From Escherichia coli O157:H7 (GTDB lineage Bacteria > Pseudomonadota > Gammaproteobacteria > Enterobacterales > Enterobacteriaceae), in NCBI RefSeq assembly GCF_013167455.1, contig NZ_CP038328.1: a DNA stretch of 64,000 nt; one strand, 5' to 3'. A program made the position numbers. Positions 49,101 to 52,100 of the stretch are shown here, one piece after another. Numbering within the stretch: position 1 is the first letter of the stretch; each line of letters starts with the position of its first letter.

Positions 49101-52100
49101 GAAGAAATTGTACGCAGCGTGATGGCGTCAATGGGACAAACGGCCCCCGCGCCGTCAGAAGCAAAGTGCGCCACTACCACCTGTGCGGCACCGGTGACCT
49201 CGGAAAGCTGCGCGCTGGATTTAGGTTCTGCGGAAGCAAAAGTGTGGATTGGTGTTGAAAACCCACATCGTGCGGATGTGTTAACAGAACTGCGTCGCAG
49301 CACCGTGGCCCGCGTTTGTACCGGTCGTGCCGGTCCGCGTCCGCGTACGCTGGCGCTGCTGCGTTTCCTGGCCGATCACTCTCGTTCGAAAGATACCGTA
49401 CTGAAAGAAGTGCCGGAAGAGTGGGTGAAAGCGCAGGGCTTGCTGGAAGTACGCTCCGAAATTAGCGACAAAAATCTCTACCTGACTCGCCCGGATATGG
49501 GCCGCCGCCTGTGTGCAGAAGCTGTTGAAGCGCTGAAAGCACAGTGTGTTGCTAATCCGGACGTACAGGTCGTTATTTCTGATGGCCTGTCAACTGATGC
49601 CATCACTGTGAACTACGAAGAGATCCTGCCGCCGCTGATGGCGGGCCTGAAACAGGCCGGGCTGAAAGTCGGCACGCCATTCTTTGTTCGTTATGGTCGC
49701 GTGAAGATTGAAGATCAGATCGGTGAGATCCTCGGCGCGAAAGTAGTGATCCTGCTGGTGGGCGAACGTCCGGGGTTGGGTCAGTCAGAAAGCCTCTCCT
49801 GCTACGCCGTTTACTCGCCGCGTATGGCGACCACCGTTGAGGCCGATCGCACCTGTATCTCTAACATTCACCAGGGCGGCACGCCGCCGGTTGAAGCCGC
49901 AGCCGTCATTGTGGATTTGGCGAAACGTATGCTGGAGCAGAAAGCATCCGGCATCAACATGACCCGATAAGGAGGCATCATGCCAGCTTTAGATTTGATT
50001 CGACCGTCGGTAACCGCCATGCGGGTGATTGCCTCCGTTAACGCCGATTTTGCGCGTGAACTGAAATTGCCGCCACATATTCGTAGCCTCGGTCTGATTT
50101 CTGCCGATTCTGACGACGTAACCTACATTGCGGCTGACGAAGCGACCAAACAAGCGATGGTAGAAGTGGTATATGGTCGCTCGCTGTATGCGGGCGCGGC
50201 ACACGGCCCGTCACCGACTGCCGGTGAGGTGCTGATTATGCTTGGTGGGCCAAACCCGGCGGAAGTGCGTGCCGGTCTGGATGCGATGGTTGCGCATATT
50301 GAAAATGGCGCTGCTTTCCAGTGGGCTAATGATGCGCAAGATACGGCATTCCTGGCACATGTAGTTTCGCGTACCGGTTCTTATCTCTCATCAACCGCCG
50401 GGATCACGCTTGGCGATCCGATGGCGTATCTGGTGGCACCGCCGCTGGAAGCGACCTACGGCATTGATGCAGCGTTGAAATCTGCCGACGTACAGCTGGT
50501 GACCTATGTCCCGCCACCGTCTGAAACTAACTACTCGGCAGCATTTTTAACCGGTAGCCAGGCAGCGTGTAAAGCGGCCTGTAACGCCTTTACCGATGCA
50601 GTGCTGGAAATCGCGCGTAATCCAATCCAGCGTGCGTAACGGAGGTTGCCAATGATCAATGCACTGGGATTGCTGGAAGTGGACGGCATGGTCGCCGCGA
50701 TAGATGCAGCGGATGCCATGCTCAAAGCAGCTAACGTTCGTCTGCTCAGTCACGAAGTGCTTGACCCAGGTCGCTTAACGCTGGTGGTGGAAGGCGATCT
50801 GGCGGCGTGTCGTGCTGCGCTGGACGCAGGTTGTGCTGCCGCGATGCGTACCGGGCGTGTCATCAGCCGTAAGGAGATCGGTCGGCCAGACGATGACACC
50901 CAGTGGCTGGTTACTGGCTTTAACCGCCAGCCGAAGCAACCCGTAAAGGAACCCGACGCGCCAGTTATCGTCGCGGAATCTGCTGACGAGTTGTTGGCGC
51001 TGTTAACATCAGTACGTCAGGGAGTGACGGCAGGAGAAGTGGCTGCCCACTTTGGCTGGCCGCTGGAAAAAGCCAGAAATGCGCTCGAACAGCTCTTTTC
51101 TGCTGGGACGTTACGTAAACGCAGTAGTCGTTATCGTCTCAAGCCCCATTAACCTGTCGGAGGTGCCGGGTGTCCTACAACACCCGGCATTAACATCATG
51201 AAAAAGACCCGTACAGCCAATTTGCACCATCTTTATCATGAACCCTTACCCGAAAACCTGAAGCTCACGCCGAAGGTCGAAGTGGATAATGTTCATCAAC
51301 GACAGACAACGGATGTCTATGAACATGCTTTAACGATTACCGCCTGGCAGCAGATTTACGATCAGCTGCATCCGGGCAAGTTTCATGGTGAATTTACGGA
51401 AATTCTACTCGATGATATTCAGGTTTTTCGTGAATACACCGGTCTGGCGCTGCGTCAGTCGTGTCTGGTCTGGCCGAACTCGTTCTGGTTTGGCATTCCG
51501 GCGACGCGCGGTGAGCAGGGATTTATCGGTTCGCAATGTCTGGGAAGCGCAGAAATAGCGACGCGCCCTGGTGGAACCGAGTTTGAATTAAGTACGCCGG
51601 ACGATTACACGATCCTGGGCGTAGTGCTTTCTGAAGATGTCATCACCCGTCAGGCTAACTTTTTGCATAATCCGGATCGGGTATTACATATGTTGCGTAG
51701 CCAGTCGGCGCTGGAAGTGAAAGAGCAGCATAAAGCCGCGCTGTGGGGCTTTGTCCAACAGGCGCTGGCGACGTTTTGCGAGAACCCGGAAAATCTCCAT
51801 CAGCCTGCAGTGCGAAAAGTGCTGGGGGATAATTTGCTAATGGCGATGGGGGCGATGCTGGAAGAAGCGCAGCCAATGGTGACGGCGGAAAGCATCAGTC
51901 ATCAGAGTTACCGTCGGTTGCTTTCCCGCGCCCGTGAATATGTGCTGGAAAACATGTCCGAACCGGTGACGGTGCTGGACTTGTGTAATCAACTGCATGT
52001 CAGCCGCCGCACGCTACAAAACGCGTTTCACGCTATTTTAGGAATTGGCCCGAACGCGTGGCTGAAACGCATTCGCCTGAACGCCGTACGCCGCGAACTG

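Follow-up and report, generated by a model that had tools for sequence, protein, structure and literature searches.

In Escherichia coli O157:H7, the genes eutK and eutR are separated by a short spacer (positions 51153-51197, cctgtcGGAGGtgccgggtgtcctacaacacccggcattaacatc) that contains a perfect hairpin, here termed P1. All coordinates refer to the window, i.e., the whole 64-kb stretch of E. coli O157:H7 DNA that was studied. EutR is the master activator of ethanolamine utilization and a virulence regulator in enterohemorrhagic E. coli and Salmonella, and its dosage is critical because the protein competes with the lyase for adenosylcobalamin. The literature on eut regulation covers the P1 and P2 promoters (not to be confused with the hairpins P1 and P2 described below), EutR, CsrA, and MavR (PMC5821096, PMC10433801, PMC8565329). 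We found no published account of the eutR hairpin in full-text literature searches, which did not cover the older Salmonella work (Kofoid et al. 1999, Roof and Roth 1992). The comparisons reported here indicate that P1 is maintained as an RNA structure, and we consider how it may serve the initiation of eutR translation.

Results

The eutK-eutR spacer contains a stable hairpin

The 161 bases around the hairpin match O157:H7 genomes at 100% identity and occur in 5389 of 5426 complete E. coli genomes, where the flanking genes are annotated as eutK and eutR. Reading from 5' to 3', the eutK stop codon (TAA, 51150-51152) is followed by cctgtc, a Shine-Dalgarno (SD)-like GGAGG, the 5' arm of P1 (TGCCGGGTGT), the loop cctaca, the 3' arm (ACACCCGGCA), ttaacatc, and the eutR ATG; thus, 6 nt separate the stop codon from the eutR SD. 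The features of the region are collected in Table 1. An inverted-repeat search found the two 10-nt arms of P1 to be 100% complementary across a 6-nt loop. The hairpin begins 11 nt past the eutK stop and ends 8 nt before the eutR ATG, and two extra G·U pairs (51162/51191 and 51163/51190) are possible below it. A preliminary description of this DNA had called a stem-loop here; the hairpin is real, but the 9-bp stem and 8-nt loop given there are a subset of the 10-bp stem and 6-nt loop, and the stated distance of about 9 nt to the ATG is in fact 8 nt.

Table 1. Features of the eutK-eutR junction in the window
Feature	Position	Strand	Basis
eutK coding sequence	50646..51152	+	Open reading frame (ORF) translation; RefSeq annotation of identical DNA; BMC and EutK_C Pfam domains on orthologs
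P0 5' arm (tentative), UCGG, overlapping the SD at its first two G	51157..51160	+	Minimum free energy (MFE) fold, RNAalifold
GGAGG, sole SD-like sequence of eutR, adjoining the 5' foot of P1	51159..51163	+	Conservation; anti-SD duplex energy
Hairpin P1 (5' arm 51164-51173, loop CCUACA 51174-51179, 3' arm 51180-51189)	51164..51189	+	Inverted-repeat search, RNA folding, covariation
Unpaired A/U-rich tail (uuaacauc) between P1 and AUG, with no SD	51190..51197	+	Sequence; 16S duplex energy
Hairpin P2 (predicted; UCAUGA.AAAGA 51196-51207 pairs with UCUUU.AUCAUGA 51230-51241, taking in the AUG)	51196..51241	+	Inverted repeat, folding, synonymous constraint
eutR coding sequence, 350 aa, AraC family (ATG 51198-51200)	51198..52250	+	ORF translation; RefSeq annotation of identical DNA; Pfam on orthologous contigs
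P0 3' arm (tentative), CCGA, eutR codons 18-19	51250..51253	+	MFE, RNAalifold; codons synonymously invariant

Folding bore out the stability of the hairpin region. RNAfold of 51140-51215 (76 nt) yielded an MFE structure of -23.6 kcal/mol and a centroid structure of -21.5 kcal/mol, whereas shuffles of the same segment averaged -15.4 kcal/mol (z = -2.9) and 1 of 200 folded as stably. Perfect 10-bp inverted repeats with 3- to 8-nt loops occur at four loci in the window, compared to a mean of 0.5 in dinucleotide shuffles; the other three loci with perfect short-loop repeats of at least 10 bp lie at 16499-16525, 22615-22642, and 37279-37306. The P1 pattern itself has a single match in the window even at three mismatches, and the 38-nt segment comprising the SD and the hairpin is found at a median of one place per E. 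coli genome.

Pairing in P1 is conserved while its sequence varies

A 16-protein EutR alignment led to 78 loci in species-representative genomes, and 36 metagenomic loci came from a DNA pattern that was anchored in the flanks and blind to spacer content. Salmonella enterica, Phytobacter, strain ESL0689, and further lineages were contributed by eight exact-protein look-ups. The 90 nt upstream of every eutR were inspected. Stems of unequal length throw the inner pairs out of register in plain MAFFT and covariance-model alignments, and pairs were therefore also counted from the stem foot; because the register is then chosen by pairing itself, this count leans towards structure.

When 19 distinct stems from about 10 enterobacterial genera were registered at the foot, 95.9% of the cells were paired, with two-sided change at six of the nine pairs. 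The covariation score of these phylogenetically related sequences was 0.418, versus 0.228 ± 0.026 in column shuffles, none of 500 of which reached the observed value. Sliding the partner arm by 1-3 columns reduced the paired cells to 31-48%, and even in the covariance-model alignment, with its inner pairs partly misregistered, 87.7% of cells were paired compared to at most 62.7% after sliding. Counted from the foot, position 7 is occupied by U-A, C-G, G·U, or A-U, position 9 by C-G, U-G, or U-A, and position 10 by U-A, G-C, C-G, or G-U. The GCCGG/CCGGC at the foot of the stem is nearly invariant and the top is variable, with compensatory foot pairs in Phytobacter (U-A) and in the lineage L122 (A-U). 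The loops lack conservation and range from 3 to 12 nt. The hairpin spans 26-29 nt with 10-12 bp in general and reaches 77 nt with about 30 bp in Intestinirhabdus alba. One lineage, L116, has an A·C mismatch in P1.

These comparisons argue that P1 is a selected, evolutionarily maintained RNA structure, because the stem sequences differ among genera while the pairing stays. Conservation of the pairing in other enterobacteria, on which the preliminary description had let its stem-loop depend, was thus found, and folding and covariation together support as genuine the RNA-level structure it had placed in the eutR translation-initiation region.

The sole SD of eutR lies on the far side of P1

Four arrangements were observed upstream of eutR. 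In type A, an SD-like GGAGG is followed by the hairpin, 8-10 A/U-rich nucleotides, and the ATG; this type includes Escherichia, Salmonella, many Citrobacter, the Klebsiella oxytoca group, Pseudocitrobacter, a Pluralibacter metagenome-assembled genome, Phytobacter, Intestinirhabdus, ESL0689, L116, and L122. Type B (Yokenella, L120, and L121) has in addition a second SD in the tail, whereas type C (L119 and Entomohabitans) has the hairpin followed by a proximal SD only. Type D, found in Buttiauxella, Hafnia, Morganella, Pectobacteriaceae, Pseudomonas, and others, has a normal SD and no hairpin.

Every eutR ortholog possesses a strong anti-SD site, which is located upstream of the stem in type A, on both sides of it in type B, and proximal to the start codon in types C and D. 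The duplex energy with the 3' end of 16S rRNA is -10.1 kcal/mol for the E. coli GGAGG and +2.0 kcal/mol for the 8-nt tail before the ATG (UUAACAUC). Over the type A lineages, the upstream site ranges from -5.6 to -10.1 kcal/mol and the tail from +2.0 to -1.0 kcal/mol, with a tail length of 8-10 nt in all of them; for GGAGG, the duplex energy spans -8.9 to -10.1 kcal/mol. The GGAGG was invariant and 0-1 nt from the stem in 34 of the 34 distinct hairpin-bearing sequences first collected; among lineages added later, weaker SD variants occupy the same place in L118 (GGAGA) and L122 (UGGAG).

The linear SD-ATG distance is 34 nt in E. coli and 34-38 nt across 34 relatives. With P1 closed, as predicted thermodynamically, this distance becomes 9-11 nt in the relatives and 8 nt in E. 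coli when the outer U-A pair is counted. In I. alba, the 77-nt hairpin (-50.3 kcal/mol, z = -4.0) sits in the same place with GGAGG adjoining its foot, and the SD-ATG distance of 86 nt in the linear sequence is 9 nt in the fold. Because this much larger hairpin keeps the folded spacing, it is the pairing and the geometry of the junction that are conserved, not sequence or size. The hairpin-less genes of Brenneria, Pectobacterium, Lonsdalea, and Samsonia have GGAGG exactly 9 nt from the ATG, and hairpin-less orthologs overall have the SD 4-9 nt from the ATG. The preliminary description had suggested that the stem might occlude the ribosome-binding region; this suggestion does not fit the layout, in which the SD and the AUG both lie outside P1 and the only SD is 5' of the stem.

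Two irregularities were seen at this site. A metagenomic sequence (L098, 2369-2436) carries a 9-nt tandem duplication, GGAGGTGCC GGAGGTGCC, directly before the hairpin, resulting in two copies of the SD. In L116 (1501-1522), eutR as placed by the gene caller (357 aa) starts at a TTG within the loop of the hairpin, 21 nt before the conserved ATG.

P1 is predicted to form the core of a larger fold

The RNAalifold consensus contained three helices: P1, a second hairpin (P2) that takes in the start codon, and a 4-bp closing helix (P0). Folding from -70 to +60 around the ATG predicted P2 in eight of nine hairpin-bearing translation-initiation regions, with a probability of approximately 0 that the AUG is unpaired; the exception was L116, in which P2 is lost on both arms. 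P2 alone has a predicted energy of -9.7 kcal/mol (z = -4.1), and none of 200 shuffles was as stable. The 8-mer ATCATGAA is present at both 51195 and 51236. The coding arm of P2, codons 11-15 (CAT CTT TAT CAT GAA), showed zero synonymous variation in 34 of 35 distinct sequences, which span about 10 genera, and the neighboring codons vary freely. Over codons 2-100, synonymous variation was found at 0 of 9 codons that overlap the predicted P2 and P0 arms versus 68 of 79 elsewhere (Fisher p = 3e-7).

P0, with 4-6 bp, is a tentative helix that is modeled as closing a three-way junction. Inspection by eye of the Phytobacter (L117) arms, CUGCCGG/CCGCAG, and those of Citrobacter, CUGUCGG/CCGAAG, suggested a 6-bp P0 with one bulge kept in both, even though the encoded residues change. 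Pseudocitrobacter, L118, and L122 have a weak P0 or none. P1 is predicted by these models to be the stable core of a P0-P1-P2 fold of about 95 nt (51157-51253). We also considered and rejected an RNA thermometer, as the computed probability of the AUG being unpaired stayed at 0.00 from 20 to 45 °C, i.e., no thermal opening was predicted.

A different pairing was noticed in hairpin-less Pectobacteriaceae, where eutR (L048, L055, L056, L058, L061, and L074) has CCUCC at codons 17-18, approximately +49 to +55. This motif is exactly complementary to the GGAGG SD of the same genes, and RNAfold pairs the two in Brenneria and Samsonia. An ancient SD-masking helix is suggestive only, as the CCUCC is missing in Brenneria izbisi (L052) and is confounded by Pro-Pro codons.

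Discussion

P1 as a proposed structured spacer in a split ribosome-binding site

We propose that P1 is a structured spacer within a split eutR ribosome-binding site (RBS), bridging the SD and the AUG, and we give this reading an even chance of being correct. In the unfolded RNA, the 34 nt between the SD and the AUG would be too far for an SD-bound 30S subunit to set the AUG in the P site. Once P1 folds, the feet of the helix would lie side by side, leaving 8 unpaired nucleotides between the SD and the AUG, and the spacing would then equal that of eutR genes that lack the hairpin. P1 would project away from the ribosome platform, so that selection would act on pairing while the stem sequence, the loop, and the length were free to vary. 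By shortening the SD-AUG distance, P1 would enable initiation rather than block it, with the 30S subunit presumably using the upstream SD across the folded hairpin. P2, and perhaps P0, would probably damp translation and result in low EutR synthesis. A ribosome terminating at eutK would be expected to cover and open P0 and to halt at the foot of P1; given that the eutK stop is so close to the SD, some coupling of eutR to eutK translation is plausible. Such coupling cannot be obligatory, because a Salmonella P2-eutR'-'lacZ translational fusion (-455 to +100) that includes this region and excludes the eutK start was expressed (PMC10433801). The same fusion was lowered by overproduced CsrA, a protein that binds GGA/SD sequences (PMC10433801), and this effect is compatible with use of the GGA-containing SD.

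The proposed arrangement resembles those of phage T4 genes 38 and 25 (Nivinskas et al. 1999; Malys and Nivinskas 2009; reviewed in PMC3014915). A hairpin there leaves 5 of 22 nt between the SD and the AUG in gene 38 and 11 of 27 nt in gene 25, and mutations that destabilize it reduce initiation (PMC3014915). In eutR, as in those genes, the linear SD-AUG distance is too long and the hairpin would, by its predicted fold, bring it into a functional range (34 to 8 nt), and the hairpin occurs in close relatives while distant ones have a normal RBS. In the type A lineages, no other SD stands at a canonical distance from the start. The location between two cistrons recalls, in particular, the T4 gene 26-25 junction. 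The eutR case differs in that it concerns a chromosomal regulator gene of Enterobacteriaceae and in that the hairpin, with 10-12 bp and about 30 bp in I. alba, surpasses the T4 ones in length and stability and lies inside a larger predicted fold that pairs the AUG.

The coupling component can be compared with the E. coli atpHA and RNA phage MS2 coat-replicase junctions, where translation is coupled via masking structures. Like these, the predicted eutR fold takes up the AUG and a portion of the SD in helices, and the eutK stop lies 4 nt before the P0 arm (51157). Unlike these, P0 has only 4-6 bp and is not universal, P2 would be beyond the reach of a ribosome at the eutK stop, and the Salmonella fusion devoid of the eutK start was expressed (PMC10433801). 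The general idea of the preliminary description, that RNA structure tunes EutR synthesis, is plausible.

Several points weigh against a bridging role. In the full predicted fold, four of the five SD bases have a probability of only 0.02-0.17 of being unpaired, and the net effect of the fold could be repressive. Types B and C retain a strong hairpin where the proximal SD makes bridging needless, and this suggests that P1 has a further function or that its primary one is different. At 26-29 nt, and 77 nt in I. alba, the hairpin exceeds the T4 examples in size. The A-rich unstructured tail, together with the AAAAAG that follows the AUG, could allow initiation that does not depend on an SD. Finally, the categories in the synonymous-site comparison were defined after the predicted fold had been seen, and the sequences compared are phylogenetically related.

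A possible mRNA boundary or exonuclease barrier

Stem-loops such as the repetitive extragenic palindromic (REP) sequences and bacterial interspersed mosaic elements (BIME) of malE-malF, and those of the puf and pap operons, are intercistronic hairpins that stabilize mRNA, and REP-type and other intercistronic hairpins are established exonuclease barriers. P1 could in the same way be mainly an intercistronic boundary, either a barrier to 3'-to-5' exonucleases acting after RNase E cuts in eutR or an insulator of the eutS-eutK message, with the structural genes and the regulator receiving different mRNA fates and the position of the SD being secondary. We regard this as a less probable account of the main function of the hairpin, yet as a serious rival to bridging. 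P1 shares with the REP, puf, and pap hairpins that it is a GC-rich stem-loop with no U-tract between cistrons that are needed at very different levels, and it follows the stop codon of the penultimate gene of a long operon. The retention of strong hairpins where the SD is proximal (L119 and Entomohabitans) or duplicated (Yokenella, L120, and L121) favors a barrier, as does the freedom of length and stability to vary upward, to -50 kcal/mol in I. alba. The eutR mRNA is, moreover, an RNase E substrate with stability controlled by a small RNA (sRNA) (PMC8565329), and this sensitivity to RNase E fits a barrier. What a barrier leaves unexplained is the gap of 0-1 nt between GGAGG and stem and the constant tail of 8-10 nt, even with a 77-nt hairpin. 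Buttiauxella also has adjacent eutK and eutR genes but no hairpin, and P1 differs from REP elements in being single copy, lacking REP similarity, and lying inside the RBS of the downstream gene with a fixed geometry relative to the SD and AUG. A barrier and a bridging spacer are compatible, and in E. coli the upstream SD would still depend on bridging for its function; the barrier may have been selected first, with the split RBS being the way in which translation copes with the hairpin.

A negative element as an unlikely reading

The preliminary description had viewed the structure as negative, hindering ribosome access or attenuating read-through from the main promoter and so limiting positive feedback. 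That P1 acts purely in this way seems unlikely to us. In its favor, a stable structure lies within -35 to -9, a region covered by the 30S subunit, and most of the SD bases, like the AUG, are paired when the whole fold is predicted. A negative element would also suit a low-abundance regulator such as EutR, whose promoter P2 is weak and constitutive (PMC5821096). The pairing of the AUG is, however, due to helix P2, and P1 contains neither the SD nor the AUG. A negative element would require neither an SD fixed at the 5' foot nor the absence of a proximal SD, and hairpin-less orthologs simply have GGAGG 9 nt from the ATG.

Attenuation of transcription in particular found no support. P1 resembles an intrinsic terminator in being a GC-rich hairpin at the end of a gene and differs from one in having no U-tract on either strand, the bases after the hairpin being AUUAACAUC; in that respect, the preliminary description was right that it is not a classical terminator. 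A search of 50400-51600 found zero terminator-like sites on either strand, and we rejected an intrinsic terminator or attenuator. Transcription must run into eutR because the gene is expressed from the main promoter (PMC5821096). A promoter in the spacer was likewise rejected: no sigma-70-like site was found in 50400-51600, and a TTGAAG/TAAAAG pair seen by eye in Citrobacter has a spacer of only 9 nt.

Unlikely readings: a protein-binding site or a relic insertion

We consider it very unlikely that the fold of about 95 nt is a dedicated translational switch, in which a factor, foremost the EutK C-terminal domain, encoded just before the hairpin, or alternatively CsrA, would bind the GCCGG/CCGGC foot beside the SD and set EutR synthesis per transcript; such a switch would link synthesis of the microcompartment shell to the positive feedback loop of the eut operon. 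Also very unlikely is a simple binding site, made up of this foot and the adjacent GGA, for CsrA or for the C-terminal helix-turn-helix domain of EutK that controls EutR synthesis. The five foot pairs are almost invariant while the top varies, and the EutK C-terminal domain looks nucleic-acid-binding and is without an assigned role (PMC5821096), both of which would suit a protein site. Yet even the foot changes by compensatory pairs (Phytobacter and L122) and the loops are unconserved. The only GGA is that of the SD, outside any loop, whereas CsrA leaders have at least two GGA, typically in loops and one of them overlapping the SD, and direct binding of CsrA was mapped to eutS, not to eutR (PMC10433801). 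The EutK of Buttiauxella has the same C-terminal domain and no hairpin accompanies it, and we therefore rejected a link between this domain and the hairpin. MavR was also dismissed as the relevant factor since this sRNA binds eutR within the 3' portion of its coding sequence rather than in the hairpin region.

A functionless palindromic insertion, the merely tolerated relic of a small mobile or repeat element, is hardly credible: the restriction of P1 to a clade, with absence from Buttiauxella, Hafnia, Morganella, and Pectobacteriaceae, fits a single insertion, but many compensatory changes over about 10 genera are unexpected of neutral decay, no Rfam or repeat match was obtained (best Rfam matches of 15-16 bits versus thresholds of 37-39, E ≥ 2; no family), and the single copy per E. 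coli genome and uniqueness in the window at up to three mismatches led us to reject REP/BIME or any other dispersed repeat.

Implications

If the split RBS is correct, eutR would provide a conserved chromosomal counterpart of the T4 examples, with natural variants of 26 to 77 nt. These variants would form a natural series for gauging the size limit that the 30S platform sets on a structure lying between the SD and the AUG, and gene finders or RBS calculators that use the linear SD-AUG distance would mis-score eutR. The synonymous constraint suggests that the first 20 eutR codons carry RNA-level information, which is relevant to recoding or tagging the gene.

Neighboring genes and minor observations

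Downstream of eutR, the ORF list places hemF in convergent orientation. The N-terminus of EutR (MKK...NLHHL) aligns among orthologs. In Escherichia only, the eutR ATG continues the reading frame of eutK, with zero stops between it and the eutK stop codon, and one stop-codon mutation would fuse EutK to EutR; some E. coli records contain gene calls that join BMC and AraC domains (P0057 and P0078). Stop-codon read-through into eutR was rejected, as an in-frame TAA is present in Citrobacter and the frame is not kept across spacers of different length. In Hafnia alvei (L037, 2387-2974), a protein with tandem BMC domains is encoded upstream of eutR in place of eutK, an operon end unlike that of E. 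coli. In E. coli EC931 (NZ_CP049118.1), the match to the region begins at query base 18 (window position ~51117) and abuts an IS5 transposase, which suggests that in this strain IS5 interrupts the 3' end of eutK, a short way before the hairpin.

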